From Alphaproteobacteria bacterium (GTDB lineage: Bacteria > Pseudomonadota > Alphaproteobacteria > Rs-D84), in assembly GCA_017511715.1 (NCBI GenBank), contig JAFWJF010000001.1:2892-66891 (forward strand): a stretch of DNA of 64,000 bases, in the 5' to 3' direction. Positions 2,898 through 55,263 of this stretch are shown one piece after another; position 1 is the stretch's first letter, and every line of letters starts with the position of its first letter. The translations under genes were made by a program, and so were the position numbers. A model generated the notes under the pieces. That model did no database searches, was not told the origin of the DNA, and was given only the letters and a program-made list of their open reading frames with translations.

Positions 2898-3045
2898 AGA
2901 AACCGACCCAGTGATGATATATCTTTTTGTTTGAAATGTCCAGTGATTTTAATGCGCAAATGCAATTTTCTGCCTTTATTTATATATTGTGTGTATGCAA
3001 TAATCAGTCTGTTAGATGTTTTTTGGTTGTATAAAAGGTGTTCGT

Positions 3046-6069: not shown

Positions 6070-6448
6070 AAAAATTGAACAAGAACAAGTTGCTAAATTG
6101 AAAGGCGATAAAGTTATCCCTGCTTTCAAGGCTGGTGACACAGTTAAAGTTCATGTAAAAATCAAAGATGGTGATAAATTCCGTATCCAAATGTTTGAAG
6201 GCGTAGTTATTGCGCGTGATGGTGGTACTGGAAACAATGCGTCTTTCACAGTGCGCCGTGAATCTTATGGCGTTGGTGTAGAACGCAAATTCCCATTGTA
6301 TAGTCCAGCAATCGAAAAGATTGAAAAAGTTCGTGTCGGTAAAGTTCGCCGTTCGAAATTGTTCTTCTTGCGTGGTTTGTCTGGCAAGAAAGCTCGTATC
6401 GTTGAAGATTTGTCTGCAAAGGCTAAAAACGCCGGCGAAGATAAATAA
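6050..6448 (+). CDS. rplS: 50S ribosomal protein L19
   Basis: [44 protein letters not shown] is canonical L19. Operon context. Confidence 0.9.
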
Positions 6449-16168: not shown

Positions 16169-18112
16169 ATGTTATTTGTTAGGAGAAAGAGCATGAATCA
16201 AACTTTGTTAATTGTATTATTGTCCGTGGTTTCTTTGGTATTTGTTAATATGATTGCGATATTTTTTATTTCGCGCAAATCTCAACGCGTTATGGGGTCT
16301 TTGTTAGAAATTATGACAAATCCTGAACAGGCAAAAATACAAGATGCCGCCCGCGTTTTACAGACGATATTAAAGGACGAAATTACCAAAATTGATAATA
16401 ATTTTCAGATGATGGCAGGCGCAATGATGAACCAAATTGCGCACACAGAAGAAATAAAAAAGGCGCTTTCAGAACAAAATGATAAATTGGTCGCGACAGC
16501 GGATGAAGCAACAAAAAAAATTGCGGTTATGTCACAAAGACTGGAAAACACGATTGAAGGATTGAATGGTATCGTTTCGTCAAAAGGCTGGTTAGATGTG
16601 CAACAAAGCACGGATAATTTTTCTGCTGTAACGGAAGGCTTGTTAAACAAAATAACAGAAGCGACCACTGCAACCACAGAAAATGCATCTAAGATTCAAG
16701 AACAAATAAATCAGAGCATTGAAACAGAACAGCAAATAAGCGAACAGTTGCAAACGCATTTTGCAAATAATACTAATAATATGCAAGAATTGTCTGCTGC
16801 GGGCGTCGCGTTGCAACAACAACTGACTGATTTAAGTACTAGCGTGACCTCCGGCTTTGATAATGTCACGACTTCATCAAAGAATTATGAAGAAACAATG
16901 CGTCAAAACGATAAATTATTAAGCGAATATTTAACCAAAATGTCAGAATTTACAAAACGTGCAGGCAAAGAATTGACGCGCCAAGTTAACACAATGACCG
17001 AAACAGCAAATGTTGTTGGTGCAAATGTTCGTATGGCGGAAACATCAATAGATAAACAGTTGCGCAAATTAGAATCTGCAATAGAATCGCTTAATGCGTC
17101 GACAACGAACACAACGGCATCTGTACGTGGAATAACAAACGAATTGGCAGGGCTTACGAATCGTTTTGACAGTGAAATTCATGACTTTTCAACTGGGGTT
17201 GTTCGTGAAATCAAAGATGTGTCTGGTGTTGCAAACGCAACATTAGAAAACACTAAATCTGCAGCAACTGAATTTGCAGATTCTGTAAAAAGTATGGGTA
17301 TAGGCGTTCGTGAAACATTGATAGAAATGAACAAGGCACACACACAATTAGCCGGTCAGTCTGAAAACCTTATCAAAATGTCCACCGAAACCACGGAACA
17401 ATTAAAACCTTTGTCTGAATTGATAGAAAAGTATTATGTCGCCCTGCCCGATTTGGCGGCTGGTTCGCGCGACATGAGCGAAAACTTAAATACGATAGTT
17501 AACACGTTGGTTGAAAAAATCAACACTATGAAAACTACAATATCAGAATCTTTGGAAAACATAAACAATTCGTCTGTGCAGTTGGGTAATGTCGCGGGTG
17601 AATCACGTCAGCAAATGATAGATTTGATGGCTGATTATGCCAAGGCTGTTGATGCGATGCAAAGCCTTAATAAACAAATGATGGTTGCGCGGGCTTCTGC
17701 ACCGATGGATGCAATAAAGGTTGCGCCAAGTGCAAATTTTGCGCCGTTAAGCACGAAAGATTTTCTTAATAATGTAGATAAGTTATTTGATAAATTATAT
17801 GAACAGGCGGTCGATTTGACACGCGCATCTAATGCTGAAATACCTGATGTGGTGTGGGACAAATACAACGATGGCGACAAAAAGATATTTGCAAAGTGGT
17901 TGGTAAAAATGTTTAATGCCACGAACAAGAAACAAATTCATGATTTGTTGAAATCTGACAAGATATTTAATTCACAGGCAACGCAATTTGTCCGTAATTT
18001 CGAGAAAGTATTAAACGGTGCGAACCAAACTAATGAAGCAGATAAATTAAAGGCGACATTGCTTAAAACAGATTTGGGCGTAATATATACCGCGATACAT
18101 AAAAACATATAA
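16169..18112 (+). CDS. membrane-anchored coiled-coil protein (Q/T/N/E-rich), unknown function
   Basis: N-terminal TM segment LLIVLLSVVSLVFVNMIAIFFI followed by roughly 550 aa of predicted coiled coil. Confidence 0.5.
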   Translation: MLFVRRKSMNQTLLIVLLSVVSLVFVNMIAIFFISRKSQRVMGSLLEIMTNPEQAKIQDAARVLQTILKDEITKIDNNFQMMAGAMMNQIAHTEEIKKALSEQNDKLVATADEATKKIAVMSQRLENTIEGLNGIVSSKGWLDVQQSTDNFSAVTEGLLNKITEATTATTENASKIQEQINQSIETEQQISEQLQTHFANNTNNMQELSAAGVALQQQLTDLSTSVTSGFDNVTTSSKNYEETMRQNDKLLSEYLTKMSEFTKRAGKELTRQVNTMTETANVVGANVRMAETSIDKQLRKLESAIESLNASTTNTTASVRGITNELAGLTNRFDSEIHDFSTGVVREIKDVSGVANATLENTKSAATEFADSVKSMGIGVRETLIEMNKAHTQLAGQSENLIKMSTETTEQLKPLSELIEKYYVALPDLAAGSRDMSENLNTIVNTLVEKINTMKTTISESLENINNSSVQLGNVAGESRQQMIDLMADYAKAVDAMQSLNKQMMVARASAPMDAIKVAPSANFAPLSTKDFLNNVDKLFDKLYEQAVDLTRASNAEIPDVVWDKYNDGDKKIFAKWLVKMFNATNKKQIHDLLKSDKIFNSQATQFVRNFEKVLNGANQTNEADKLKATLLKTDLGVIYTAIHKNI

Positions 18113-18594: not shown

Positions 18595-18742
18595 AGAGAA
18601 TACAAGCAAGGTTTTGGAAACGAAGTGCACCGAAACCGTTGCGGTATACACGCAGACACAAAGTGTCGAGTGAATACGAGAACAAATAATTAGAAAAATC
18701 TTAAAAAATCGAAGTTTACAAGATTTTTTTGATTTTAATTAT
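18595..18742 (+). repeat. tRNA-associated repeat element, copy without tRNA duplication (long variant); likely carries a promoter
   Basis: ggttttggaaacgaagtgcaccgaaaccgtt...cacgcagacacaaagtgtcgagtg matches 32186-32243 and the reverse complement of 2664-2720. The 3' 75 bp matches 38622-38697. A TTTACA-N17-ATTATT promoter-like sequence and a GGAGG RBS lie directly upstream of 18763. Confidence 0.55.
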
Positions 18743-18762
18743 TGTTTATCGAGGAGGAAAAA

Positions 18763-19488
18763 ATGAAAAAGTTTTTGGTATTTATGTCGTTGGTGTTTGT
18801 GTGTGGTATTGCTTCCGCTGAAACAATAAATGTGAATTGGGTTGTTGATGGTGATACTTATGCGCAGACATCTTGCGAAACGGGTGGAAATTTTACTCTG
18901 CCAACAACGCCAACAAAATACGGGTATCATTTTGTTGGTTGGCAACAAGATGGTTCAATTGGTTATTGGGAACAATCGGGAACACCGACACCGGACAATC
19001 CAATCGAACCGATTTTCAGACAGTTTGGAAATACTGTTCTGCGTGCTGTGGGCAGTGGAAACAATTTAATTGCAGATAGTTATGATGTATCAACAGGAAA
19101 AATAACAAGAAGAATCGGGGTCAAGGTACTGGATGGAACGGAGACTTGGGCGACCGACCCGGTTGGAACAGGTGGACATATTAGATTTAATTATAGTTGG
19201 CCTGCTCCCTACAAAAAACCAGGGTTTGATATTTTGACAAATATGTTTCCTACTCAACCGGGCGTTGTTGGCCCAAACGCTACCAGTGCAGTGATAAGTG
19301 GGCACGACACTAACAGGAATATATACATTGCTTTCCCGGCAAACCTTTTAGATGGTGATTTAACCACTACTATAGGGCGCAGAACTGCCTTTAACAACTG
19401 GCTTTCTGCACAATACAACGCAGGTACACCTGTAATCATTTATTACCCATTGGCAACACCTGTTGAAGAAGCCTATAACGCACAATAA
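18763..19488 (+). CDS. secreted protein with a Listeria-Bacteroides-type repeat (Flg_new-like)
   Basis: Signal peptide MKKFLVFMSLVFVCGIASA. Motif NFTLPTTPTKYGYHFVGWQ. Related to parts of the giant protein at 41012. Confidence 0.6.
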   Translation: MKKFLVFMSLVFVCGIASAETINVNWVVDGDTYAQTSCETGGNFTLPTTPTKYGYHFVGWQQDGSIGYWEQSGTPTPDNPIEPIFRQFGNTVLRAVGSGNNLIADSYDVSTGKITRRIGVKVLDGTETWATDPVGTGGHIRFNYSWPAPYKKPGFDILTNMFPTQPGVVGPNATSAVISGHDTNRNIYIAFPANLLDGDLTTTIGRRTAFNNWLSAQYNAGTPVIIYYPLATPVEEAYNAQ

Positions 19489-19490
19489 AC

Positions 19491-20222
19491 ATGAGAAAGA
19501 TTGTTTTTGTTTTTATTGTTGTTTTTAATGCGCCCCTTGCATACGCTGATTTAATTACCGACAATACTTCTAATTATTGTGATTTTATAAGTATGCAGCC
19601 AAATTTATCGGCAGTATTTGAACCGAATGAATACACCTGTGCAAGCGGTTATTATTTACCTGTGAATCACGATGGGTGCGAACCATGCCCAAGTGAACAC
19701 ACATGCAATGGCGGAACTTTTACTTTTGATGAAAATGAATCACAGGGGATAACGTATGGCACAATAATAACATCTGGATATGATTACGGCTGTGACCCAC
19801 ATCTTGCTTTTGGTTTTTATACGGCGGTATTCGAACCAAATTCTCACGAATGTTCATCGGGTTATTATTTGCCGGCAAGCACCGACGAATGTATAATTTG
19901 TCCGCAAAATTCTTATTGTAGTGGTGGTGTGTTCTTTTTTAATGAAACAGAAAATCAGGGTATAAATACATGTGCGCCAGGTTTATTTTCGCCGTCTGGT
20001 TCGTCATCTGATTCACAGTGTGGACATAAATTACACGTTGGTAATGATGTTGTTTATCTGCGTAGTGTAAAAAAGACAGTGCCATCACTTCATGTGAAAA
20101 TTGGCAATGATATTTATTATGGCAATATGACAAAGATACGAACAAAGATGAACACAGATTTAATGCGGTATTTTCGTATCGGTGATTATTATTTGTGTGA
20201 TGATACAACGTGTCCAGAATAA
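19491..20222 (+). CDS. secreted cysteine-rich repeat protein that shares a ~65-aa C-terminal domain with the giant surface protein
   Basis: Signal peptide. Two CxSGYYLPxxxDxCxxCP repeats. C-terminus CGHKLHVGNDVVYLRSVKKTVPSLHVKIGNDIYYGNMT...YYLCDDTTCPE parallels the last 65 aa of the 3533-aa protein. Confidence 0.6.
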   Translation: MRKIVFVFIVVFNAPLAYADLITDNTSNYCDFISMQPNLSAVFEPNEYTCASGYYLPVNHDGCEPCPSEHTCNGGTFTFDENESQGITYGTIITSGYDYGCDPHLAFGFYTAVFEPNSHECSSGYYLPASTDECIICPQNSYCSGGVFFFNETENQGINTCAPGLFSPSGSSSDSQCGHKLHVGNDVVYLRSVKKTVPSLHVKIGNDIYYGNMTKIRTKMNTDLMRYFRIGDYYLCDDTTCPE

Positions 20223-26432: not shown

Positions 26433-26463
26433 GATTTAAACCACCCGCAAGGGTGGTTTTTTA
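26433..26463. terminator. bidirectional terminator
   Basis: aaaccacccgcaagggtggtttttt. Confidence 0.6.
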
Positions 26464-28200
26464 TACCTGTTTTTCTTCGGGTGTGTGCCCAGGTTGAAAG
26501 ATTTCAACGTCGCGCGTCATCGCCAGGAATTTTTTTGCACGCGATTGCACCAATTCTTCAATTGGAATTTCTTTCAATTCCATCAATGCATCTGATACAG
26601 ATTTTGCCAACAATTCCATTGTAGTTTGCCAATCTTTGTGTGCGCCGTCTGCCGGTTCGTCGATGATTTTATCAATCACATTTAATGATGCCATATCACG
26701 CGCAGTCAATTTTAATGCGGTTGCCGCCTGTGCCTTGAATTTGTTGTCTTTCCACAAAATACTGGCACAAGATTCGGGTGCAATAACTGAATAAATCGAA
26801 TTTTCCAACATCATTACGCGGTCGCCTGTTCCAATCGCGATTGCACCGCCAGAGCCACCTTCGCCGACATTAACAGCAACATAAGGCGTTCTTGCCCGCA
26901 GTCCCATTGCGATTGTTGATGCCACCGCCTGAGATTGACCGCGTTCTTCCGCCGCGCCACCGGCAAATGCACCAGCAGTGTCAAACAGCGAAATAATCGG
27001 CAAATCAAATTTTTCAGCCAATTTCATCAAACGTTGTGCCTTTCTGTATCCTTCTGGATTAGGCATGCCGAATCTGTGTTTTTGGCGTGTTTCAATGGTG
27101 CGCCCTTTTTCTTGTCCAATAATAACAGCCGGCGTTCCATACCAATAACCTATTCCGCCACACATGGCTGCGTCTTCGCCAAAACACCTGTCCCCGGCAA
27201 GGTATGTCCATTTGTCCACAATGCCGTTCACATAGTCCAAAAAATGCGGTCTGTTTTCATTTCGTGCCAAAAGTACCTTGTCATATTCAGGCGTTTTGCC
27301 CGCATCACGCGATTTCTTTGGCGCGTCATATTTAGGTGTTTTTACATCAATAACTTTGGGTTCGGCAGGTTGTTTTGTTAATACAGTTAATACGCGTTCC
27401 AGTGTTTCTTTTAATTCTGAACGATTAACAACTATGTCTACCATACCATGTTCATACAAATAATCTGCAGTCTGGAAATTAGACGGCAATTTTTCGTGTA
27501 TATTTTGTTCAATTATGCGACGACCAGCAAAGCCAATACGCGCGCCCTTTTCGGCAATATGGATATCGCCCAACATCGCAAACGAAGCCGTCACACCACC
27601 AAATGTTGGGTCTGTTAAAATAACTATGTACGGCAATTTATTTTCATGCAGTTTATTTACTGCGACAGTTGTGCGTGCCATTTGCATCAACGACAAAATG
27701 TTTTCTTGCATACGCGCGCCGCCACTGCATGTGACCATAACGAAAGGTTGCTTTAATTCAATCGCGTGTTCAATACTGGCAATAATCGCATCACCTGCAG
27801 CACGCCCCATAGACCCCATCATAAAGTCCCCGTTCATCACGCATACCGTCGAATTTATACCCCCTATTTTGCCATCGGCGGTTGATATAGAATCATTAGT
27901 TCCTGCATCTTCACGCGCTTCTTTTAATCTTTCTTTGTATGGTATTCTGTCGACAAAATTCAGCGGGTCATCTGTCACAATCGGTAAATCAAATTTTTGC
28001 CAATTCACATCATCAAACAATAAATCAAATCTTTGTTTGGGTGACATTATAAACGCACGTCCGCACTTTGGACAAACGTATTGATTGTTTTTATAGTCTT
28101 TATAAAACACTAAACGACCACACGCTTCGCATTTTATCCACATCAATTTGCGCACGCGTTCGTATTTGTCACGATTATGATTTGTAATACCCCTTGACAT
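26461..28200 (-). CDS. accD-accA: acetyl-CoA carboxylase carboxyltransferase, fused beta (AccD) and alpha (AccA) subunits
   Basis: N-terminus has the AccD zinc ribbon CEACGRLVFYKDY...CPKCG and carboxyltransferase fold. C-terminal half has AccA motifs (PNPEGYRKAQRLMKLAEKFDLPIISLFDTAGAFAG...VGEGGSGGAIA). One 579-aa ORF. Confidence 0.85.
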   Translation of the reverse strand: MSRGITNHNRDKYERVRKLMWIKCEACGRLVFYKDYKNNQYVCPKCGRAFIMSPKQRFDLLFDDVNWQKFDLPIVTDDPLNFVDRIPYKERLKEAREDAGTNDSISTADGKIGGINSTVCVMNGDFMMGSMGRAAGDAIIASIEHAIELKQPFVMVTCSGGARMQENILSLMQMARTTVAVNKLHENKLPYIVILTDPTFGGVTASFAMLGDIHIAEKGARIGFAGRRIIEQNIHEKLPSNFQTADYLYEHGMVDIVVNRSELKETLERVLTVLTKQPAEPKVIDVKTPKYDAPKKSRDAGKTPEYDKVLLARNENRPHFLDYVNGIVDKWTYLAGDRCFGEDAAMCGGIGYWYGTPAVIIGQEKGRTIETRQKHRFGMPNPEGYRKAQRLMKLAEKFDLPIISLFDTAGAFAGGAAEERGQSQAVASTIAMGLRARTPYVAVNVGEGGSGGAIAIGTGDRVMMLENSIYSVIAPESCASILWKDNKFKAQAATALKLTARDMASLNVIDKIIDEPADGAHKDWQTTMELLAKSVSDALMELKEIPIEELVQSRAKKFLAMTRDVEIFQPGHTPEEKQV

Positions 28201-32288: not shown

Positions 32289-33875
32289 TTATCTGCTGTT
32301 GTCAGGAATTGTCTTGTCCTGTGTTTTTGTAGTTGTTTTTTTTAACAGTTTTTTTACTGCATTTTTCAATTTTTCTTTTTTGCTTTCCCCTTGCATTTTC
32401 AATTTCAGTTCGTTTGCGAAATCTTTAAACTTTTCATGCAAAACAATTGATACTTTGTGAGGTTCTGGTTTCACAAAAATATTATCACTCCATAAAAAAT
32501 CACTCCCTATTCCTTTAACATTTGGCAGATTTATCGACTTTAAGTTTGTATTTTCAGTTAAAAATTCATCGCCAATATCTTCTACTTTCGGTAAACTTAT
32601 TGATGTTAACATTTTATTGTAATACAAGAATCTATTACCAATTTTTTCAACTTTTGGCATGTTTATTGATGTTAATATTTCGTTATTTTCCAAGAAATAG
32701 TCGCCAATTCTTTTTACAGATGGCAAATCTATTGATGTCAATGCGTTATTAGAATTTAAGAAATGCATACCGATTTGTTCGACCTTTGGTAGCGCTATTG
32801 ATGATAACATCTTGTTCTTCACTAAGAAATCACAACCAATTTTCTTAACATTTGGTAAATTTATTGTTGTTAAACTTTTGTTGTGTTCTAAAAAAACGTC
32901 TTTAATTTTTTCTGTTGTAGCTAAATCTAATTCTATAATCTGCCCTTTGAATATTACAATACGATTGCCGTCCAGTGTGGATAACGTCGTTTCTTTTGTT
33001 ATTTTGTTATATGTTCTGGTAACTTTTTTCCCGTTAAATGCCAGATAAAAAACATCAAATGTTGTGCCGTAATCAATTGGTGAAGTTATTGTTTTATCTT
33101 TATCATTATAAATCATGCCATCAAACATGATTTCGCGGTCTTTGTTCAATCGTGTAATTGTGCCACCAGTAAAATAATAATCGTCACCGATGTAAATGTT
33201 GTCTCTTTCAAAACTGTACCAGACCAACTGGTCATTAACCCAAACATAGTTATTTGGCATTTTAATATCAGAAACATTGAATTCTACATCAAAGAATTTT
33301 CGCAATGAATTTGTAAGTCCCGGGATGATATTATCTGGGTTATTACCGAATGTTGCATCTGGATTGTTTACTGTATGGTTATAACGATTTTTAATAGATA
33401 TAAATCCACCACCCTTTGCAATTTGAATTGATATAACAGATGTTCCGTATTCGTCTTCGCGTTCTGGATTTGCGGATGGTTTTATTTTGTCTGCGCCACG
33501 TTTTACCGCATGAATTATATAAAAGTTTTCATGCCTATTGGGGTCACTGAAAGTACATAATTCTTCGCCGGGGCGATAATATTTTTTTATTGAATCTTTT
33601 TGTTTTTTACTTTCAACTATAAACGCGTCATAGCCCGCTTCATCTAACAATTCTAACGGCTTTTTATCTGTGGTATATTGGGATGCAGACATTATTTTAC
33701 ATTTAGACCGGATTGTTGGTATCAATCTTTCTAGATCTTCTAATTGTGTAAATTCTAATATGTGTTCAATATTTGGAACATCCAGCAATTCGGCATTGCG
33801 AAGAATCTTGGCAAAACGTTCACCGCGATGCTTTTTAATATTTTTAAAAACTTCGGCTGTATCTATTTCTTTCAT
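32289..33875 (-). CDS. BspA-type leucine-rich repeat protein with unknown N-terminal domain
   Basis: C-terminal tandem repeats of about 23 aa (LPNVKKIGCDFLVKNKMLSSIALPKVEQIGMHFL...). No signal peptide. Confidence 0.7.
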   Translation of the reverse strand: MKEIDTAEVFKNIKKHRGERFAKILRNAELLDVPNIEHILEFTQLEDLERLIPTIRSKCKIMSASQYTTDKKPLELLDEAGYDAFIVESKKQKDSIKKYYRPGEELCTFSDPNRHENFYIIHAVKRGADKIKPSANPEREDEYGTSVISIQIAKGGGFISIKNRYNHTVNNPDATFGNNPDNIIPGLTNSLRKFFDVEFNVSDIKMPNNYVWVNDQLVWYSFERDNIYIGDDYYFTGGTITRLNKDREIMFDGMIYNDKDKTITSPIDYGTTFDVFYLAFNGKKVTRTYNKITKETTLSTLDGNRIVIFKGQIIELDLATTEKIKDVFLEHNKSLTTINLPNVKKIGCDFLVKNKMLSSIALPKVEQIGMHFLNSNNALTSIDLPSVKRIGDYFLENNEILTSINMPKVEKIGNRFLYYNKMLTSISLPKVEDIGDEFLTENTNLKSINLPNVKGIGSDFLWSDNIFVKPEPHKVSIVLHEKFKDFANELKLKMQGESKKEKLKNAVKKLLKKTTTKTQDKTIPDNSR

Positions 33876-41011: not shown

Positions 41012-44000
41012 ATGGCGGGAATCAAGCCTTTTTATAACATGTTAAAGCGTTTAATATTTGCAATATTCGTAGTGTTTACTGCAAATTCTGCATTTGCGGC
41101 GTGTGCTAGCAATCAAATTGATGTAAATGGTGATGGAACCAAATGTGAGGATGTGAAATTCACATTAGACCTTTCCAGAAGTTCAAACATAACGGTTTTC
41201 AATTTCTTTATGTCTGCCAAAGGAACATTTTATGTCGATTGCGGCAATGGCGGAACATTGACCAGCAATTCTGCCACTAATTACCCGGTATCGGGCAAAA
41301 CAGTTAACCGTACCTATGGAACGGGTAATGTAAGGTACTCTTGTACATGGGCCAATGGCAGCAAGACACAAACAATTAGGTTTGGTGGGGTTGCAGAAGG
41401 ATATAGCACCAATACAAGCACCGCCGCAATACGTTTTAATTATAATGCAACACAAGCGGCATATATAACATCAGTTTCTGGTAATTTGTCCGCTATGTTC
41501 CCGTATATTACAAACAATGCACAAAGTGGTGCACAACCAAGATTTTATATGACTTTTGATAAAGCGACAAACCTGAAAAGTATCCCCGATACATTGTTTG
41601 CAAATTACACAACACCGGCAACAAATATGTTTCATTCTACGTTTAACAATTCAGGATTGACATCAATACCTAGCAATTTGTTTTCCACCATATCTGGCGC
41701 AGCAGAAGGTCTGTTTTCTAGCACATTTAATGGATGTACCGGCTTAACATCAATACCTGGCAATTTGTTTTCCACCATATCTGGCGCAGCAAACAGCTTG
41801 TTCTATGGCACATTTCAGAATTGTACCGGCTTAACATCAATACCTAGCAATTTGTTTTCCGGGGTGTCTGGCGGGGCAAGTTCTATGTTTTTTTTCACGT
41901 TTAAAGGATGTACCGGCTTAACATCAATACCTGGCAATCTGTTTTCCACCATATCTGGCGCAGCAAACAGCTTGTTCTATGGCACATTTAGTGGATGTAC
42001 CGGCTTGACATCAATACCTAGCAATTTGTTTTCCACCATATCTGGCGCAGCAGACGGTCTGTTTTCTAACACATTTAATGGATGTACCGGCTTAACATCA
42101 ATACCTGGCAATCTGTTTTCCGGGGTGTCTGGCGGGGCAAGTTCTATGTTTTCTTACACGTTTAATGATTGCAGTTCGATATCTGCAATACCGGCAGGAC
42201 TATTTTCCGGTGTAAACCAGGCGGCAACAGGTTTGTTCATGAATGCATTTTCTGGTTCTGGGGTAAGTGGTTATATACCACCGACCACATTTTCCGGGTT
42301 GATTTCGGCGGGCAGCCCACAAAGTTCAGATATGTGGCTAGATACATTTTCATACACGAATTTAACAGCGACTTGTCCACAGGGAACAACGCAGTATATG
42401 ACAGGATACGAAGGTGGCACTAATGGTCCTACATGGAATGGGATGGTTTCTTGTACGCCAAATTCGACCACTGCAATTGCAGTAACTTTGGACAGTGCAG
42501 GCGCGACCACAAATGCCACACCTTCGACAATATATCTTCGATACGAGGATCGTTGGTACAGTAATTCTGCCCTTTCTGTTCAGATAAGTTCGCTTAACAC
42601 CATTCCATCAAAAACGGGATATATGTTCGGCGGTTTTTACACTCAACCAAATGGTTCCGGAATACAAATTATCAATTCAAATGGTTACATCTTGCAAACC
42701 ATGGAAGCAATCACGTTTACAACCACACCGACAACCGTGTATGCTTATTGGATAGAACCAAAGTTCACATTAACAACATCATCGACCAACAGTTTTCAAT
42801 TTAAACTATCTGCCGCTGGTACATTCTATGTAGACTGCGGAAACGGTGGAACGTTAAGTGGAACCGGGGCGTCCGGAAACACAATTACGCGTGCCGACAC
42901 AACCGAAGCGACATATACATGTTCATGGACCAACAGTGCAACACGAACAATCAGATTCAGCGGTGCCGCAACCGGGTATAATTCGTCTTATGGTGTTGCA
43001 GCAATAAAGTTTAATATGACAGATGCTGCCACTGATGCAAACGCAGCATTGTTAACGGGTATGTCTGGCACACTGGGGTCAATATTCGGAACAGTTGCCA
43101 CCGCCAGCACAGGCTCTGTTCAACCAGCATTTAATAAGACATTTTATGGTGCATCAAACCTTAATGCGTCAATACCGTCAAACTTTTTTGCGGGCGTTCA
43201 TGGTGCACCACGCGGGGGAATGTTTCAACAAACCTTTTCTGGATGCAGCAGTTTGACCGGCTCTATCCCAGAAACCCTATTCTGTGAAAACACGACCAAT
43301 CCAAGTGCATCAAACTGTATCTATGGAGCACCAATTGGGGCAATGTTTGAACATACATTCCTTGGTTGTAGTGGTTTGACGGGTTCTATCCCAGAAAAAC
43401 TGTTTGTGGGTATCCATGGCGCGCCTGCAAGTTATATGTTTTCTCAGACATTTAATGGATGTAGTGGTTTGACGGGTTCTATCCCAGAAAAACTATTCTG
43501 TCAAAACACAACCAGCCCATCTGCATCAAACTGTATCTATGGCGCACCGGCATCATCTATGTTTGCCTTGACATTTTATGGATGTAGTGGATTAACTGGC
43601 TCTATTCCAGAAAAACTGTTCGTTGGTATCCATGGTGCACCAGCAAATAATATGTTTCAACAAACATTCTATAATTGTAGTGGTTTAACTGGCTCTATTC
43701 CAGAAAAACTATTCTGTCAAAACACAACCAGTCCATCTACATCAAACTGTATCTATGGCGCGCCGGCAAGAGCTATGTTTTTTCACACTTTTTCTGGTTG
43801 TACAAATTTAACTGGTTTGATACCACAAAACCTTTTCAAAGGGATATACGGCGCGCCGGCAGAAAATATGTTTAATGGTACATTTAGGAATGACAACAAA
43901 TTGACAGGAATAACCGACGGCACAACTACCACAACCTATGTTCCATCAACATTCCTTAGCGCGATTAACAACACAAGCGCAACAACACCAGCAACAGGAA

Positions 44001-47000: not shown

Positions 47001-50000
47001 TGAAAGGCAACACTCTAACATGTACGGCATGTCCTGCTGGTAAATATTGCGCGGGTGGCACATACACTCATAACGGTACGGACTTAGGTATAACTGGCGA
47101 TGTTACGGCGGGATATTTTGCTTCTGGTGGTGCAAAGGTCGCAGCCCCAACCAGCAACAGCGATTGCTTAAGCGGTAATACATGCGGTAAATGTACGACA
47201 GATTCTGCCACTGGTCGTCCTGCGTATTCAACAGCTGGAGCAGCAAGTTGTTCGGCATGCCCTGCAGTAACGGGCGATATGGCAAGTCGTGTTATCTCTT
47301 ATGCAGGTTGGTGGAGCAACGATATACATAATGCGGTTACAGGATGCGCTGCCTGGTTCAATGATACAGATAATGATGCAACATTCAGAGTGTATTGCTA
47401 TTATAACACTACAGATGGTGCCTATGGTGGTTCAAACAGCATTTGCCAAGTATGGCATCCGACTGCTTGTGCAGCAGGAAAATATGATACGATAGAATCA
47501 ACAACGGAATGGCTTGCTTCTGCTAATTACACACGTGGGAAAGGTGTAGATTTCATGAATGGCAAGGTTTGTACAAACACAGATGCAGGTTATTACAGTG
47601 CCGAAGGTTCTTTGACACAAACCGCATGTGCAGCAGGCTCTTACAGCAGTGCGGGCGCAAGTACATGTACGGCATGTCCGGCGGGTAAGACAACCGCTGG
47701 CACTGGAACGGCTTTCAACACTAATGCAAACACTACATGTTCAACAAGTTGTTCGTCTATCGCAAACCTGAAAACTTGGAACAGTCAGACTTGGAACAGC
47801 GCAAATAATACAGTGACTAATTTGTGCACGGTTGCAACTTGTAATGCTGGGGCATATAAGTCTGGTAACACTTGTCCGGTTTGTGGTGCGAATTCTTGGT
47901 CAGATGATGGTGCAAGCAGCTGTACAGCATGTAACACGACCAATGGATACACGAACAGTGGAACAACAGCGGCGGCTCATGCTGGTCAGTACAGTTGTAA
48001 GACCACGTGTGCGGCAGGTAAACAAGTTGCAAGTCCTGGCGAGGCATGTTCTACCCCCGGTGGCAGTTGGTATTCTGTTCAACACACTGTAGGGGAAGGA
48101 TCGACATCCGCTGTTCAGCTGATAAGTAATCCGAATGTATTTGATTGTTTAATTGGTGGCTATGCAACACCTGACACAACTATACAAACAGACCACGATG
48201 CAAGCACAGATTGTAGGATAACATGTTCTGCAGGAAGCAGAGTCACAACGCCTAATGGTATGTGTACAGCGATAACGAGTGGCAATGTATATATGCTTGA
48301 ACATACTGTTGCCCAGGGATCTACATCACCAAAAGCAACATCATGCCCAACAAGTTATACAATCAGCGGTTCTACACAAGCAGACCACGATGCGAAGAAC
48401 GATTGTAAGATAACATGTGGTGCTGGATATGTTGTTGACACAGAAGATGGTAATTGTATTGTGCCAGAAGAAGGTTTCCAGACAGGGATACATACAGTAA
48501 GCGCAGGAAGTGTGACACGAATAGATAAAGATCCAGGCATGAACGTACCCCGTGCAGGAATATGGTATGACTGTTTGACTAACTATAGTGCGACAGGCAA
48601 AAGCGCAATCAACCACGATCAAAGAAGTGATTGTAAAATAACATGTAATGCGGGAACACAGATTGCAACTAACAATGCAACTAGGTGCACGACACCGACA
48701 GGAAGTTGGTACACAGAACAACATACAGTAAGTGCAGGCAGCACGAGTAGTCCAACCAGTTGTGCGACAGGCTATGCAACAGCAAACACATCAACCGCAA
48801 CAGACCACGATGCGCAAGCCGATTGTAAGATTGGGTGCAGTGCTGGATATTATATACCAACAGCAGGTGGTGGATGCAAGGCATGTCCTGCTGGTAAATA
48901 CTGCACAGCAATAAGTGGTATTGCAGAAACTGCAACATCTGCCGCGACAGGAAACATAACGGCTGGGTATTTTGCTTCTGGTGGTGCAAAGGTCGCAACC
49001 CCAACAAGTAGCAGCGATTGCTTAAGCGGTAATACATGCGGCACATGCCAGGGACAGAATGGACCAAATGGTCGTCCACTTTATACTGATGCAACCGGCG
49101 GCGCAGCACAATGTTCTGAGTGTCCAGCAGTAGAAGCATCTTTAACAAGTCGTGTTGTCTCATATGGTTATTGGCCAGATACGCGTGACAGAGGGATACA
49201 AAATTGTTCTGCGAAATTCACTGATACAGATCCTGATGCTACGTTTACTACGGAATGTTATTATAGAGGCTCTAATTATCATGAATCCTTTAACTGTCAA
49301 ACCGCCGCACCAACCGCTTGTGCTGCGGGTAAGTATGAAACTATCAGAACAACAGACAAATGGGGCACATATTACGCCATTGGTACTGGAGTAGATCATA
49401 TGAACGGTAAGGTTTGTACGGATACAGATGCAGGTTATTACAGTGCCGAAGGTTCTTTGACACAAACCGCATGTGCAACGGGTTCATACAGCAGTGCTGG
49501 CGCAAGTACATGTACGGCATGTCCGGCGGGTAAGACAACCGCTGGCACCGGAACAGCTTTCAACACTAATGCAAACACTACATGTTCAACAAGTTGTTCG
49601 TCTATCACAAACCTAAAAACTTGGAACAGTCAGACATGGAACAGTTCAAATAATACAGTGACTAATTTGTGCACGGTTGCGACTTGTAATGCTGGGGCAT
49701 ATAAGTCTGGTAACACTTGTCCGGTTTGTGGGGCGAATTCTTGGTCAGATGCTGGTGCAAGCAGCTGTACAGCATGTCAAACAGATTATACCAACAGCGG
49801 AACAACAGCGACAAACCATGCAGGAAACGCATCTTGTAAGATAACTGTATCTGGCGGTCATTATATTGGCACACCCGGTCAAAACAGCACAAACTGGGGA
49901 ACATGTGATGCAGGAACCTTTAAGGCGCAACATACCGTGGCATATGGCAGCACAAGTAGTTGTTCGAACTGCGAAGGCAGAACGAAGTACAGTGCGGCAG

Positions 50001-51613
50001 GTGCATCATCTTGTTCAACTGTAAGCAGTGGATATTACTCAACAGGATGTACATCTAATAATAACTGTACAGGACAATCACAGTGTACGGGTGCAACATA
50101 CTGTGCAAGTGGTGTACAAAACAACTGTCCGACAGCAGAAAGCACATGGACACAGGGTACTGGTAATGGATGGACAGCTGTAACACAGTGCTTTGAGACC
50201 AAGAACGCAACAGATGTAAGCAGTTATTGCAGTGCTGGACAATTAAAGAAGAACGCTACGAACACCACGACCTGGGGCGACAGCACAATAAGCACAGCGT
50301 TGAAAGCAAAAGCGGGTTCTATTGTAAGCGGACAAACATGTACACAATGTACAGGTGCCACATTCTCGGCTGGTGATACTGCGACAAGTTGTAGTGCATG
50401 CCCGACTGGATATGATGCGAACACAGATGCTGGCAAGAGCACGAACACACAATGCCAGATAAGTGTGACGGGCGGTCATTATATTGGTACGAAGGGTCAG
50501 ACAAGTTCTAACTGGGATACATGTGCGGCAGGTACATACAAGGCAGCACACACTGTGAACTATAACAGCACAAGTAGTTGTTCGAACTGCGAAGGCAGAA
50601 CGAAGTACAGTGCGGCGGGTGCATCATCTTGTTCAACTGTCACCAGCGGATACTATTCAACCGGTTGTGACACATCGACAAACAATAACTGTACAGGACA
50701 ATCAAAGTGTACTGGAAAAACATATTGCACAAATGGTGTACAGGAAGATTGTCCAGCCGCAGCTGATCACAAACGTACAACGTTCCCAGCAGCATATTAT
50801 TCGCCAACAATTACAAGCACATCCATAATGAGTGCCAGTAGACGCAAGGCAATCACAGAATGTAAGGCTTCTTCGACAATGACTGGGGCACGCGGAACAT
50901 TGATTGATCAAGCAACATATAACCCAACCACAGAAGAATACGACACCACAACATGGTATGGATATTATAATGTTAAACCGGGGTATTATTTGACCACCAC
51001 GGGCAGTTGCGGAACATACGCATACTATCAAAATGCGGAAATTTGTCCAGATGGTGCTTATTGTCCGGGCAAGGCGGGGGTTAAGTGTGATTCTAGCAAC
51101 GAAGCAACCGTTCATACGCCAACATTCGGTCTGGAAGAATGTTCAGCATTGAACAGCGAATATACAAAATCTGATAGTGGGCGCAATGCAGCAACCGATT
51201 GCTATCTGAACACGACAGCAACAAAATATGTTGCAACTGCTGGTGAAAACCAAGTTGATTGTATTGCAGACGGATATTGTCCGGGTAATGTAAAGATATA
51301 TTATAACAGCATTGGTGGACGCACTGCGTGCCCTGCCACAGCACCATATAGTGGCGCGGGTATGTCAAGGCCCGAACAATGCGGACGCAAGTTGCATATT
51401 GGCGATAACGTAATGTATTTGCGTTCTGAAAAAGCAACGACACCTTCGCTGAACGTCAATTTTGGTGGCATGACATATTATGGAAATATGGCAGAAACCC
51501 AAGCAAACATTACAAGTTCTTCAACCAAAGAATTGAAGATTAAATACAAAAATAATAACAAATTGTACTACTTGTGTGATGACACAACCTGTCCAGAGGC
51601 AGACAACGATTAA
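41012..51613 (+). CDS. giant secreted mosaic surface protein (3533 aa): four N-modules with BspA-like LRR blocks, Listeria-Bacteroides repeats, ephrin-receptor-like Cys-rich repeats, conserved C-terminal domain
   Basis: Signal peptide MAGIKPFYNMLKRLIFAIFVVFTANSAFA. Four copies of KFTL..F.FKLSAAGTFYVDCGNGGTLSG...TYTCSW...TIRFGG. LRR repeats LFxxISGAAxxLFxxTFxGCTGLTSIP. Repeats of the form YxITYxxNGG...GYxFKGW. More than 20 C..G.Y..(A)G...C..CPAGKxxxG motifs. Single uninterrupted ORF. Confidence 0.9.
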   Translation: MAGIKPFYNMLKRLIFAIFVVFTANSAFAACASNQIDVNGDGTKCEDVKFTLDLSRSSNITVFNFFMSAKGTFYVDCGNGGTLTSNSATNYPVSGKTVNRTYGTGNVRYSCTWANGSKTQTIRFGGVAEGYSTNTSTAAIRFNYNATQAAYITSVSGNLSAMFPYITNNAQSGAQPRFYMTFDKATNLKSIPDTLFANYTTPATNMFHSTFNNSGLTSIPSNLFSTISGAAEGLFSSTFNGCTGLTSIPGNLFSTISGAANSLFYGTFQNCTGLTSIPSNLFSGVSGGASSMFFFTFKGCTGLTSIPGNLFSTISGAANSLFYGTFSGCTGLTSIPSNLFSTISGAADGLFSNTFNGCTGLTSIPGNLFSGVSGGASSMFSYTFNDCSSISAIPAGLFSGVNQAATGLFMNAFSGSGVSGYIPPTTFSGLISAGSPQSSDMWLDTFSYTNLTATCPQGTTQYMTGYEGGTNGPTWNGMVSCTPNSTTAIAVTLDSAGATTNATPSTIYLRYEDRWYSNSALSVQISSLNTIPSKTGYMFGGFYTQPNGSGIQIINSNGYILQTMEAITFTTTPTTVYAYWIEPKFTLTTSSTNSFQFKLSAAGTFYVDCGNGGTLSGTGASGNTITRADTTEATYTCSWTNSATRTIRFSGAATGYNSSYGVAAIKFNMTDAATDANAALLTGMSGTLGSIFGTVATASTGSVQPAFNKTFYGASNLNASIPSNFFAGVHGAPRGGMFQQTFSGCSSLTGSIPETLFCENTTNPSASNCIYGAPIGAMFEHTFLGCSGLTGSIPEKLFVGIHGAPASYMFSQTFNGCSGLTGSIPEKLFCQNTTSPSASNCIYGAPASSMFALTFYGCSGLTGSIPEKLFVGIHGAPANNMFQQTFYNCSGLTGSIPEKLFCQNTTSPSTSNCIYGAPARAMFFHTFSGCTNLTGLIPQNLFKGIYGAPAENMFNGTFRNDNKLTGITDGTTTTTYVPSTFLSAINNTSATTPATGMFTGTGLASSCPTWAAAATPVWATDAGKPWCEPDIKFTLNTLATNSFQFKLSAAGTFYVDCGNGGRLSVVNGNGTVSGNTITKTGTSWGTFECSWDDTEPQTLRFGGAASGYTASQSGGAIRFNVSDTNQDDDTNAPKITGISGSLGAIFGTIDGTVSPTGAESQPRFYGTFWAASNLAGSIPDELFYGIHGTPISYMFNRTFRGCSSLTGKIPETLFCQNTSNPNASNCIYGAPTQQMFYMTFHGCSGLTGNSSTGYAIPAKLFAGIRGDPSSASSVFGYTFSGCSGLNGQIPETLFCQNPNSPSASNCIYGAPASNMFSFTFQGCTGLTGDGIHAVPVKLFAGLHGAPAPKMFQSTFTGDTGLTGEIPPALFCGGNTNNLSNPSASNCIYGTPATEMFNSTFYNTRITHVDKNMFAGISGTSAEKMFYRTFKSCSSLSYINDTFNTKATTYIPSDFLGGITDGSVTNDATEMFTGTGLTSPCPTGTATATPAWATDAAKPWCAPNTYSITYDMNGGTNYSGAPTTYVYGTSTTINGAPTKSGYIFKGWTGSNGSTPQPTVTIGASATGAKSYTANWETAKFTLTTSGMSDFSFKLSPKGTFYVDCGNGGTLSGQSASGSTVSVNTITRTTTTATTYTCSWASSAGNKTISFGGSATNTTTTYNSDTNVPAIHFLESSNADSIKSVSGNLSAMFPYITSNAQSGAQPRFNRTFYDATHLTSVPDTLFANYTTPATYMFSNTFASSGLTSIPAGLFSRITGAATGLFEGTFSGARLTSVPAGLFAGISGVADSLFNSTFTGTPITSIPENLFAGVSGSASGVFSYAFYRCASLATITNGQTSTTYVPGTFLSDVTGNDNYIGADMFGMTDLADTCPYGMGDTTPAWASDAGKPWCSPNTYTITYSAGQGGVGANQTENVVFGTTFTTKSANTFSKPHATFTGWDTLEYSSAWTQPDTTYTYDLPSDITIAAQWTCDSGYTLNNSTGNCDANSITCDPGFYLKGNTLTCTACPAGKYCAGGTYTHNGTDLGITGDVTAGYFASGGAKVAAPTSNSDCLSGNTCGKCTTDSATGRPAYSTAGAASCSACPAVTGDMASRVISYAGWWSNDIHNAVTGCAAWFNDTDNDATFRVYCYYNTTDGAYGGSNSICQVWHPTACAAGKYDTIESTTEWLASANYTRGKGVDFMNGKVCTNTDAGYYSAEGSLTQTACAAGSYSSAGASTCTACPAGKTTAGTGTAFNTNANTTCSTSCSSIANLKTWNSQTWNSANNTVTNLCTVATCNAGAYKSGNTCPVCGANSWSDDGASSCTACNTTNGYTNSGTTAAAHAGQYSCKTTCAAGKQVASPGEACSTPGGSWYSVQHTVGEGSTSAVQLISNPNVFDCLIGGYATPDTTIQTDHDASTDCRITCSAGSRVTTPNGMCTAITSGNVYMLEHTVAQGSTSPKATSCPTSYTISGSTQADHDAKNDCKITCGAGYVVDTEDGNCIVPEEGFQTGIHTVSAGSVTRIDKDPGMNVPRAGIWYDCLTNYSATGKSAINHDQRSDCKITCNAGTQIATNNATRCTTPTGSWYTEQHTVSAGSTSSPTSCATGYATANTSTATDHDAQADCKIGCSAGYYIPTAGGGCKACPAGKYCTAISGIAETATSAATGNITAGYFASGGAKVATPTSSSDCLSGNTCGTCQGQNGPNGRPLYTDATGGAAQCSECPAVEASLTSRVVSYGYWPDTRDRGIQNCSAKFTDTDPDATFTTECYYRGSNYHESFNCQTAAPTACAAGKYETIRTTDKWGTYYAIGTGVDHMNGKVCTDTDAGYYSAEGSLTQTACATGSYSSAGASTCTACPAGKTTAGTGTAFNTNANTTCSTSCSSITNLKTWNSQTWNSSNNTVTNLCTVATCNAGAYKSGNTCPVCGANSWSDAGASSCTACQTDYTNSGTTATNHAGNASCKITVSGGHYIGTPGQNSTNWGTCDAGTFKAQHTVAYGSTSSCSNCEGRTKYSAAGASSCSTVSSGYYSTGCTSNNNCTGQSQCTGATYCASGVQNNCPTAESTWTQGTGNGWTAVTQCFETKNATDVSSYCSAGQLKKNATNTTTWGDSTISTALKAKAGSIVSGQTCTQCTGATFSAGDTATSCSACPTGYDANTDAGKSTNTQCQISVTGGHYIGTKGQTSSNWDTCAAGTYKAAHTVNYNSTSSCSNCEGRTKYSAAGASSCSTVTSGYYSTGCDTSTNNNCTGQSKCTGKTYCTNGVQEDCPAAADHKRTTFPAAYYSPTITSTSIMSASRRKAITECKASSTMTGARGTLIDQATYNPTTEEYDTTTWYGYYNVKPGYYLTTTGSCGTYAYYQNAEICPDGAYCPGKAGVKCDSSNEATVHTPTFGLEECSALNSEYTKSDSGRNAATDCYLNTTATKYVATAGENQVDCIADGYCPGNVKIYYNSIGGRTACPATAPYSGAGMSRPEQCGRKLHIGDNVMYLRSEKATTPSLNVNFGGMTYYGNMAETQANITSSSTKELKIKYKNNNKLYYLCDDTTCPEADND

Positions 51614-53611: not shown

Positions 53612-54349
53612 ATGAAAAAATATATTATTTGGATTTTATCTGTTATTGGTGTTGCTGCCGTTGTGTCTTTGGCTTTTGATTTTATTAAAAAACCAGATGA
53701 AATTCGCAAAATAAATGTAAGTGGCGAATGTTTGACTTCTGTTCCAAAGGACAGAACCGCAATTACTCTGCGCGTGACAACGTTAGATAAAAACGCCGCA
53801 GTTTCTATGAAAATGGCGACTGAAAAAATGGCAGAAATCACAGATTATCTGAAAACTATTGATGTTAAAATGCAAACCACCGAATTCAATTCGTATGAAA
53901 AAACAGAATGGAATCATGTCGCACAAAAATCAGAAAACCTGGGCATAGAAACGCGTATCGCAATTGAAGTTTCTGCTAAAAATCCTGAAATCATAGAAGC
54001 CGTACTGAATAAGTATGCAGGGCAACAAGATGTATTCACCGAAAATTTGCGAATGTTCACAAGCACAGAAGCAATGAAGCCTGCACTTGATAAATGTTTA
54101 TCTGTCGCAGTAGAGGATGCACGCAATCGCGCAAATGCATTGGTTGTCGCAGATAATCTTAAGGCTGGAAAATTGTTATCTGTATCTTATGACAATGTAT
54201 CTTACAACGAAAGACCTGTTGCCAACTATCGTTTAATGGGTGCAAAAATGGCAACTATGGAATCTGCTGCGTTTGATGCCGGCGGAACTATCGTTGGCAA
54301 AGACACAGAAATTACAGTCACAGTATCTGCAACTTTCGAAATAAAATGA
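53612..54349 (+). CDS. SIMPL / DUF541 periplasmic protein (BP26/Omp28-like)
   Basis: Signal anchor, then ITLRVTTLDKNAAVSMKMATEKM...ARNRANALV, the typical SIMPL pattern. Confidence 0.6.
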   Translation: MKKYIIWILSVIGVAAVVSLAFDFIKKPDEIRKINVSGECLTSVPKDRTAITLRVTTLDKNAAVSMKMATEKMAEITDYLKTIDVKMQTTEFNSYEKTEWNHVAQKSENLGIETRIAIEVSAKNPEIIEAVLNKYAGQQDVFTENLRMFTSTEAMKPALDKCLSVAVEDARNRANALVVADNLKAGKLLSVSYDNVSYNERPVANYRLMGAKMATMESAAFDAGGTIVGKDTEITVTVSATFEIK

Positions 54350-55263
54350 ATGATATAATTGCTGAATTTGTTAACTATTTATTAAAAACAAAACACTATT
54401 CAACGCATACCGCAACGGCATACGAAACAGACGTTTGTGATTTTGTCCAATTCTTGAAGCGATTTAATAACGGTAATGCAGAATTATCCGATGTCGCAAA
54501 TGCAGATACTTTCGCATTTCGTGGTTGGATGGCAGATCGTGCAAAACGCGAATTAACACACAAATCAACTGCGCGTGCACTGTCTGGTCTGCGCACATTT
54601 TACAAATGGTTATTGCGTTATAAAAACATCCAAAACGATGCCATAGATTTAATTTCTGCCCCAAAGGTTGAACGCAAATTATCAAAAGCAATAGAGGCAA
54701 CAGATATATCAGATATGCATGCGGCAATACGTTCCCTTGATTTCGAAGAACCATGGATTGCAGCACGCGATTGGGCGTTGATAGTTTTGATATTCGGATG
54801 CGGTTTGCGAATAAGTGAGGCTTTGTCATTAAAAAATTCTGATGTAGCAAATAAACCAGATTCTTTGCGCATAATCGGCAAAGGGAATAAAGAACGTATC
54901 GTGCCGGTTTTGCCTGCCGTGCATGTCGCAATTGAAAAATATATGAAAATAAATCCGTTTGGCACACGAAGTGATGACGCCCTGTTCCGCAGTGTGCGCG
55001 GGCTTCCTATGTCGGCACGAATGGCAGAAAAAGTTGTGGAAAAACTGCGCCATTATTTACAATTACCAGATTATGTGACACCGCATGCGTTGCGTCATAC
55101 CTTTGCAACGGCTTTGCTGGCCGGGGGCGCAGATTTACGAAGCCTGCAAGAATTATTGGGACATTCATCGCTTTCTACTACGCAACTGTACACAAAGGTA
55201 AACATGGCGGAAATTATGGATGCGTATAAACACGCCCACCCAATGGCAAATGAAAACAATTAA
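54346..55263 (+). CDS. tyrosine recombinase XerC/XerD family
   Basis: RALSGLRTFYKWLL, GLRISEALSL, HALRHTFATALLAGGADLRSLQELLGHSSLSTTQLYTKV with catalytic R-H-R-Y. Confidence 0.85.
   Translation: MNDIIAEFVNYLLKTKHYSTHTATAYETDVCDFVQFLKRFNNGNAELSDVANADTFAFRGWMADRAKRELTHKSTARALSGLRTFYKWLLRYKNIQNDAIDLISAPKVERKLSKAIEATDISDMHAAIRSLDFEEPWIAARDWALIVLIFGCGLRISEALSLKNSDVANKPDSLRIIGKGNKERIVPVLPAVHVAIEKYMKINPFGTRSDDALFRSVRGLPMSARMAEKVVEKLRHYLQLPDYVTPHALRHTFATALLAGGADLRSLQELLGHSSLSTTQLYTKVNMAEIMDAYKHAHPMANENN

Follow-up and report, generated by a model that had tools for sequence, protein, structure and literature searches.

Introduction

The C-terminal domain (CTD) of the type IX secretion system (T9SS) of Bacteroidota (TIGR04183, Por_Secre_tail) is an all-beta module of about 70-90 residues. 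Many Sec-exported proteins that are otherwise unrelated, some of them very large, have a single copy each, and the module is restricted in its lineage distribution. The type I dockerin (PF00404) is a single-copy tag of about 70 residues on signal-peptide proteins, with dozens of tags per genome, that is mostly C-terminal yet position-tolerant. Here we describe a domain of about 70-75 residues that resembles both of these modules in its general properties and that is carried by two predicted secreted proteins, a giant protein of 3533 residues and a small protein of 243 residues. Both are encoded in a stretch of 64,000 nucleotides from an alphaproteobacterial contig of the GTDB lineage Rs-D84 (JAFWJF010000001.1, positions 2,892 to 66,891 of the forward strand; assembly GCA_017511715.1), which is referred to below as the window. 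The domain recurs on hundreds of exported proteins of related gut bacteria, where it may serve as a docking or anchoring module.

The likeness to described systems does not extend to sequence or fold. Searches of NCBIfam with the domain, the small protein and the giant returned no match to TIGR04183 or TIGR04131 at E≤1, and there was no fold match to the Ig-like beta-sandwich of solved CTDs. The T9SS CTD is always terminal, whereas the domain described here is internal in 23% of the carriers analysed and sometimes N-terminal. No T9SS component was detected among the Pfam-scanned neighbours in the window and in related loci of up to 20 kb. To our knowledge, no T9SS is known in Alphaproteobacteria. 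Sortase (LPXTG), exosortase and rhombosortase signals consist of a motif, a hydrophobic transmembrane segment and a basic tail, whereas the domain has an acidic end, no transmembrane segment and no LPXTG motif. Autotransporters (type V secretion) carry a beta-barrel with a terminal aromatic beta-signal, whereas the domain has no Pfam match and ends in acidic or polar residues, not in F, W or Y. Type I secretion substrates have no N-terminal signal peptide and contain RTX repeats, whereas the carriers of the domain have Sec signal peptides and gave no RTX matches.

For a docking role the dockerin would be the closest functional analogy, and a subset of the members of the domain family likewise has DxDxDG-type loops that probably bind calcium. 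This likeness is functional only: dockerins are built from helical, EF-hand-like duplicated segments, whereas the domain is predicted to form three beta-hairpins, has no match in Pfam and has no known cohesin-like partner. The SLH, CWB2, LysM and GW anchors are, like the domain, conserved modules common to variable surface proteins and usable at either terminus. However, they usually occur in tandem and have known folds, whereas the domain is always single, has no sequence or structure match and is found in diderm organisms. The Flg_new repeat (PF09479/TIGR02543) is a beta-rich extracellular module of about 70 residues that is present in the same proteins. Its matches in the giant lie at residues 1505-1574, whereas the C-terminal 70 residues give none at E≤1. 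The name of the giant at NCBI derives from its Flg_new or InlB B-repeat, and not from the terminal domain.

Two secreted proteins of very unequal size share a C-terminal domain

An initial annotation of the window, made from its sequence, had drawn attention to a discrete segment common to the C-termini of the giant and the small protein. Both open reading frames (ORFs) were found where they had been placed (Table 1), and the common segment was borne out by three kinds of comparison. In a tblastn search of the whole window, the last 75 or so residues of the two proteins proved to be homologous (48.6% identity over 74 residues, E about 5e-21), and since the next-best match had an E-value of 0.06, the window holds two copies only. 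Likewise, no third copy was found when the window was searched with a profile of 117 sequences. In a BLASTP comparison, the C-terminal 126 residues of the small protein matched the end of the giant (39% identity, E=8e-23). Besides the domain, this alignment takes in the Cys-rich repeat that directly precedes it in the giant, together with its equivalent in the small protein. The start of the segment, which had been set at position 51400, was about 30 nucleotides late, as the profile boundary lies at 51371. In the giant, another four residues (ADND) separate the domain from the stop codon, while the last residue of the small protein is also the end of its domain. The DNA of the two copies is about 60% identical, which bears out the earlier proposal that they are old paralogues and not products of a recent duplication.

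The two carriers are very unequal in size and both have predicted Sec signal peptides with AxA-type cleavage sites, which were read from the sequence: between AFA and AC in the giant, the true start of which may be Met10, and between AYA and DL in the small protein. The proteins end in ...LYYLCDDTTCPEADND and ...YYLCDDTTCPE; both ends are acidic and lack a hydrophobic stretch.

The domain defines a large family in gut and rumen Alphaproteobacteria

When 1.84 billion representative proteins were searched exhaustively with HMMER and a 3-sequence profile, 628 reached E≤1e-3 and 340 of these E≤1e-10. The similarity between the two window proteins is thus neither compositional nor confined to this pair. 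The domain has several copies per genome in one lineage. By comparison, a word-indexed protein search returned only one fragment when the two C-termini were the query and only 34 short fragments when the 117-sequence profile was used; this type of search badly under-reports the family, as the exhaustive HMMER search exposed. Lengths and architectures were counted for the best 150-151 of the 628 representatives. Carrier lengths range from 60 to 6644 residues, and 45 of the 150 best have at least 1000 residues, 17 of them at least 3000.

No described family was matched. The C-terminal segment has no family in Pfam, NCBIfam or PHROGs, a profile search of the sequences in the PDB gave nothing, and a literature search found no paper that mentions the domain.

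All named members of the family are entered as 'MAG: hypothetical protein [Alphaproteobacteria bacterium]', where MAG stands for metagenome-assembled genome. A scan of one genome per GTDB species with two peptide patterns, derived from the 3-sequence alignment and hence yielding lower bounds, identified 37 loci, all of them in MAGs of gut or rumen Alphaproteobacteria, with at least 3-4 copies in several MAGs. These MAGs belong to Candidatus Enterousia spp., UBA1218, UBA1185, several RUG and RGIG rumen MAGs and Hadza gut MAGs. Every relative that has a name or genome title is an uncultured gut or rumen alphaproteobacterium, and viral contigs contained no relatives. A phage origin of the domain was considered and ruled out, as there were no such relatives and no PHROG matches to the domain, to the tails that follow it in some carriers or to the protein encoded next to the small carrier.

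Candidatus Enterousia was placed in the GTDB order Rs-D84 by a 2025 paper (PMC12306168). According to this study, members of the order are common in animal and human guts, have genomes of mostly less than 1 Mb that lack most biosynthetic pathways, and are suspected to depend on partners; many unexplained membrane and surface proteins and a partner-dependent lifestyle have been proposed for the lineage.

The related contigs encode LptC, an LptB-like ABC ATPase, OmpA, an outer-membrane protein (OMP) beta-barrel, a secretin, a prepilin peptidase and GcrA. The envelope genes, located at 7407-9975 in L040, 11872-15600 in L039, and 5572-6267 and 14718-19156 in L042, comprise those for TcpQ and a secretin, for an LptB-like ABC ATPase, LptC and an OmpA-family protein, for an OMP beta-barrel, and for a prepilin peptidase of the Peptidase_A24 family, which four unannotated genes follow. 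Because LptC, OmpA, an OMP beta-barrel and a secretin are encoded in related contigs, the lineage is diderm. It has at least one secretin-based system, which is a possible export route.

The domain prefers, but does not require, the C-terminus

A local hmmsearch of the 151 best representatives detected one significant copy of the domain per protein. The initial annotation had proposed to check whether every match is a signal-peptide protein with the domain at its extreme C-terminus. Most carriers have the domain there, as no more than 15 residues lie between its end and the C-terminus in 116 of the 151 representatives. This does not apply to the other 35 (23%), in which 20-300 further residues follow the domain, and in five representatives the domain is N-terminal, so that it is not restricted to the C-terminus. 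Sec-type signal peptides were found in both window proteins, in 21 of 21 orthologues of the small protein and, by a crude sequence rule, in at least 71 representatives. The Sec-exported carriers span from 200 to more than 6000 residues.

The tails behind the domain fall into recurrent families. Thirteen representatives (P0054, P0059 and P0064 among them) have a tail of about 130 residues with a CWC...KCG[YF]YCANNM...RTNLY motif (tail a). Ten others have a tail of about 180-230 residues of the type '...Y[IL][EQ]S[ST]G[TS]QYIDTG ... CG[ML]YD.V...F' (tail b), and the remaining 12 have other tails, including LRR-type (leucine-rich) repeats in P0150. The modules of tails a and b, which are recurrent, unannotated and extracellular, gave no Pfam or PHROG match. 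A tail-b module of about 200 residues was seen in P0018, P0061, P0074, P0110, P0004 and others.

In all 135 representatives whose upstream sequence was long enough, the domain is preceded by a Cys-rich repeat, as judged by two or more Cys in the 45 residues before it. The five N-terminal cases (P0065, P0074, P0110, P0137 and P0138) have the domain directly behind the signal peptide and followed by the tail-b domain of about 200 residues; in these proteins there is no Cys-rich repeat ahead of the domain and its first Cys is absent. P0004 shows the reverse of P0074, with the domain of about 200 residues at the N-terminus and the terminal domain at the C-terminus. Because terminal, internal and post-signal-peptide placements all occur, the domain is a mobile, autonomous, single-copy extracellular module.

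No lipobox, transmembrane segment or beta-barrel match was detected in the carriers. An N-terminal lipoprotein anchor was also considered for the giant and its homologues and ruled out: the Cys behind the signal peptide follows an AxA site for signal peptidase I and not a lipobox.

Conserved residues and predicted fold

The consensus of the domain reads xxCGR-I-L-H-x-G-xxxx-Y-L-R-S-x-K-K-T-T-P-S-L-N-V-x-I-G-xxx-F-Y-G-N-M-T-T-...-L-K-x-x-Y-...-Y-x-V-Y-D-D-[ST]. The loop Y-L-R-S-x-K-K-T-T-P-S-L between hairpins 1 and 2 is highly conserved, and most members of the family end in YSVYDD[ST]. The first Cys is nearly universal (115 of 117 sequences) and probably pairs with the upstream Cys-rich repeat. 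Two conserved Cys pairs had been noted in the window proteins; they are no family trait, since the terminal two Cys are present in only 30 and 16 of the 117 sequences. The terminal LCDDTTC pair was therefore ruled out as the defining disulfide of the domain and is regarded as a subfamily feature. In 28 of 151 members, the turn of hairpin 2 contains a DxDxDG-type insertion, which is probably a calcium-binding loop.

AlphaFold2, with an alignment of 36 sequences as input, modelled the copy of the giant as six strands that form three consecutive hairpins, with a mean predicted local distance difference test (pLDDT) score of 83 (about 90 in the core) and a predicted template modelling (pTM) score of 0.73. 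An independent run for the copy of the small protein gave the same six-strand pattern (pLDDT 83, pTM 0.71). The strands are short, alternate between hydrophobic and polar residues and have one polar face, which fits a soluble beta-domain. Because the two models agree, and because five representatives have the domain straight after the signal peptide, we regard it as a predicted all-beta domain of three beta-hairpins that would fold autonomously. Foldseek found no fold match in the PDB (best E=1), and a library of viral structures gave weak, non-significant echoes of uncharacterised gut-phage proteins (best E=0.26, template modelling score ≤0.49). The domain family is undescribed and has a small predicted beta fold that is possibly new, in a lineage for which no counterpart has been described.

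The carrier genes and their surroundings in the window

The features of the two carrier genes are listed in Table 1. Downstream of its signal peptide, the giant consists of four 'FxFKLSAxGTFYVDCGNGG' modules, each followed by blocks of BspA/PARCEL-like repeats, then Listeria-Bacteroides (Flg_new) repeats, a long Cys-rich stalk of the Ephrin_rec_like type and the terminal domain. Within this stalk, residues of about 2185-2310 and 2800-2925 (about 47570-47950 and about 49415-49795) form a near-identical internal duplication of about 125 residues (MNGKVCT[ND]TDAGYYSAEGSLTQTACA...CGANSWSD.GASSCTAC), which suggests a recent intragenic duplication. A second pair of segments of about 120 residues (about 2950-3075 and 3130-3250) is very similar too. 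The G+C content of the giant gene is 0.44-0.46, compared with about 0.35-0.40 in the remaining window, and there is a strong positive AT skew; both may reflect a composition rich in Thr, Gly, Ala and Cys or a different history.

Table 1. Features of the domain-carrying genes and of the adjoining cassette gene; all positions refer to the window.
Feature	Position	Strand	Identifier or evidence
Giant carrier gene, 3533 aa	41012..51613	+	NCBI MBR3147764.1, 'InlB B-repeat-containing protein'
Predicted Sec signal peptide of the giant, MAGIKPFYNMLKRLIFAIFVVFTANSAFA, followed by AC	41012..41098	+	Read from sequence; same junction (AxA, then C) in homologues
Last Cys-rich repeat of the giant (aa ~3406-3453), directly 5' of the domain	51227..51370	+	BLASTP alignment runs through
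Domain copy 1 (aa 3454-3529 of the giant)	51371..51598	+	Profile match 1-74, E=8.5e-37; tblastn to copy 2
Small carrier gene, 243 aa	19491..20222	+	NCBI MBR3147745.1 (IKF41_00135), hypothetical protein
Predicted Sec signal peptide of the small protein, MRKIVFVFIVVFNAPLAYA, followed by D	19491..19547	+	Read from sequence; kept in all 21 aligned orthologues
Cys-rich repeat 2 of the small protein (aa 121-172), adjoining the domain	19851..20006	+	
Domain copy 2 (aa 173-243 of the small protein)	20007..20219	+	hmmsearch, A3 profile, i-Evalue 6.9e-30
Cassette partner, 248 aa, signal peptide and Flg_new repeat, without the domain	18742..19488	+	Pfam Flg_new, 1.7e-06

The small protein consists of a signal peptide, two Cys-rich repeats and the terminal domain, and belongs to a conserved family of proteins of about 245-275 residues. 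Residues 121-200 are the best-conserved stretch of this family, with a mean pairwise identity of about 0.6 versus 0.45 in the pre-domain mature region; they comprise the second Cys-rich repeat and the first half of the domain. Residues of about 124-152 (19851-19940) gave borderline Pfam matches to DUF7631 and Ephrin_rec_like, and in the homologue P0015 the match to DUF7631 exceeded the cut-off (31.4 bits versus 27). On the basis of these matches, the Cys-rich stalk is related to eukaryote-like repeats of the GCC2/GCC3 or TNFR type.

The gene of the partner ends 2 nucleotides before that of the small protein, so that the two form a cassette. This cassette is kept in at least 21 of the 37 related loci (L002-L038), with several per MAG, and is fused into one ORF in L024. 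The partner has about 250-280 residues across loci, of which only the first 90 or so are conserved. Otherwise, the carriers have housekeeping genes as neighbours, namely uvrD, rpoD and a gmk-like gene around the small gene, and the genes for RNase J, rpsD and trpS around that of the giant. Pfam and NCBIfam searches of 38 further ORFs of the window found housekeeping and peptidoglycan genes only and no secretion system. Within 3 kb in the 37 related loci, no neighbour family is conserved apart from further genes for surface proteins; secretion or processing genes, for which the initial annotation had proposed to look, were thus not among the conserved neighbours. Those neighbours that were judged by their sequence alone (an AMP-dependent ligase-like protein, a protein with an N-terminal Cys nucleophile and a small membrane protein) offered nothing related to secretion.

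Several other genes of the window deserve mention. Just upstream of the cassette, 16169-18112 (+) encodes a protein of 647 residues with one N-terminal transmembrane segment and a long region that is probably a coiled-coil and matched only Baculo_PEP_C, weakly. A tyrosine recombinase of the XerC/D type (305 residues; 54346-55263, +) is encoded about 2.7 kb downstream of the giant gene, and an HNH endonuclease ORF of 208 residues lies at 3016-3642 (+). The ORF at 26461-28200 (-) has 578 residues and combines a beta-type (Zn ribbon and Carboxyl_trans) with an alpha-type (ACCA) carboxyltransferase, which amounts to an accD-accA fusion in a genome reported to be without complete fatty-acid synthesis. 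Finally, 32289..33875 (-) encodes a putative surface protein of 528 residues with BspA-type LRR_5 repeats (2.8e-17) and without the C-terminal domain.

In related contigs, short intact ORFs that consist of little more than the domain and lack a signal peptide were found in housekeeping contexts (L039 9887-10270; L040/L041 9971-10291; L042/L043 10001-10237). The view that domain-only genes on long contigs (P0157, P0175 and P0178) represent a distinct cytoplasmic form was examined and rejected, since two of them look like 3' relics of larger genes that have been deleted: the Cys-rich repeat has left an in-frame remnant upstream of P0178, and the start of P0175 lies within the terminator of a secretin gene. 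P0157 likewise lacks a signal peptide, and the relic interpretation is based on P0175 and P0178. One domain ORF lies 26 nucleotides downstream of genes for TcpQ and a secretin. A link to the secretin was nevertheless rejected, as this ORF has no signal peptide and begins in the terminator of the secretin gene, and as no secretin is found by other copies of the domain.

Possible functions of the domain

From the existence, distribution, architecture and predicted fold of the domain, we infer that it may be a constant, position-tolerant docking or anchoring module and not a cleaved export signal; we tentatively assign this reading a probability of roughly 0.35. The variable N-terminal parts of the carriers (LRR-like blocks, Flg_new repeats and the Cys-rich stalk) would then be the business end, while the domain would tether the protein non-covalently, probably by way of the conserved basic loop, to a conserved part of the envelope of the same cell or to a common partner protein. 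The logic would be like that of dockerins or of SLH/CWB2-type anchors and, by analogy, the loop could bind an anionic envelope polymer. We favour docking because carriers that are otherwise unrelated have this constant element in common, because the domain seems to work both before and after a partner domain (P0074 versus P0004), because the basic loop is strongly conserved and predicted to be exposed, and because the carriers have cleavable signal peptides and no other detectable retention device in a diderm cell. Several observations weigh against docking. Members of the small-protein family conserve the domain no better than the Cys-rich repeat next to it (mean pairwise identity 0.47 versus 0.45). 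Since many orthologues of the small protein have HQ-S-P-A-N-P-T-E-H-R-L in place of the basic loop, a single universal ligand is doubtful. In addition, the same genomes encode exported proteins without the domain, including the Flg_new partner, the LRR_5 protein of 528 residues and neighbours in L009, L013 and L016. Because such proteins do without it, surface display does not generally require the domain.

Nearly as good as docking, in view of the invariable Cys-rich neighbour and the conservation centred on the junction, is the idea that the domain is a structural cap, a connector or a folding or oligomerisation nucleus of the Cys-rich stalk, comparable to LRR C-caps or a fibre foldon and without a ligand of its own. 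It would then close off the disulfide-rich rod or fix its register. This idea would account for the repeat directly before the domain in 135 of 135 representatives, for the probable pairing of the first Cys (115 of 117) with that repeat, and for the position of the best-conserved stretch of the small-protein family across the repeat-domain junction. In the tail-bearing proteins the domain is placed exactly between the stalk and a terminal domain of about 130-230 residues, and fibre nucleation domains, too, are single-copy and mostly terminal. The five representatives that have the domain behind the signal peptide, with neither a stalk nor the first Cys, are difficult to reconcile with this idea, and a cap would not need exposed polar and basic residues of the loops to be conserved so strongly in very different carriers. 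Taken on its own, we consider it somewhat unlikely. That the domain is the distal, ligand-binding tip of an adhesin, touching a conserved receptor of the host or of a partner microbe while the anchor lies elsewhere, is in our view unlikely. Small beta-domains on fibre tips are common receptor binders, the DxDxDG-type insertion in 28 of 151 members probably binds calcium, the sole structural echoes, weak and non-significant, come from gut-phage proteins, and the organisms are thought to be partner-dependent (PMC12306168). However, tips are usually the most variable part of such proteins, whereas here the domain is constant and the typical binding modules (LRR and Flg_new) vary. Moreover, the domain is not at the tip in 35 of 151 representatives, and no alternative anchor (lipobox, transmembrane segment or beta-barrel) is detectable in the carriers.

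The initial annotation had favoured a dedicated C-terminal export or anchoring signal. In its strict form, with a signal that is read by a lineage-specific outer-membrane machinery and perhaps removed or covalently attached, this now appears improbable. The part of the proposal that stood is the distribution: the domain is single-copy and mostly terminal (116 of 151) on signal-peptide proteins, it is restricted to one lineage with many paralogues per small genome, a diderm envelope requires an outer-membrane route, and secretin and TcpQ genes adjoin one domain ORF. An anchoring role, the softer part of the proposal, corresponds to the docking reading favoured above. Other observations speak against a dedicated export signal, among them the occurrence of the domain at internal positions, which the initial annotation itself had named as refuting its idea. 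Tails of 20-300 residues, among them recurrent families, follow the domain in 35 of 151 representatives, five have it at the N-terminus, no T9SS CTD, autotransporter or other sorting model and no solved CTD fold was matched, and no secretion gene is conserved near the 37 loci. The secretin is absent by all other copies of the domain, and the ORF next to it looks like a 3' relic that lacks a signal peptide and starts inside the terminator. The view that the domain belongs to a new sorting pathway is thus weakened by the data.

Implications for the surface of Rs-D84 bacteria

The giant gene occupies about 10.6 kb, which would be more than 1% of a genome of less than 1 Mb. A constant, single-copy module on hundreds of exported proteins offers a handle on how the surface is built in Rs-D84. 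A simple search with a hidden Markov model of the domain could define the surface proteome of the lineage, and the domain could be used as bait for a receptor in the envelope or on a partner, and be entered as a new family in Pfam and InterPro. If the domain were only a structural cap, it would still be a useful marker of a lineage-specific family of giant adhesins, and if it were an export tag, it would represent a new sorting system in Proteobacteria. A further possibility, which we regard as quite doubtful, is that an undescribed surface-display pathway in Rs-D84 uses the domain as its recognition tag, and that a lineage-specific receptor in the outer membrane or envelope captures all carriers including the giants of 3000-6600 residues. 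If this were true, the domain would be the handle for assembling the whole variable surface coat and, thus, the apparatus with which these gut symbionts interact with other cells.

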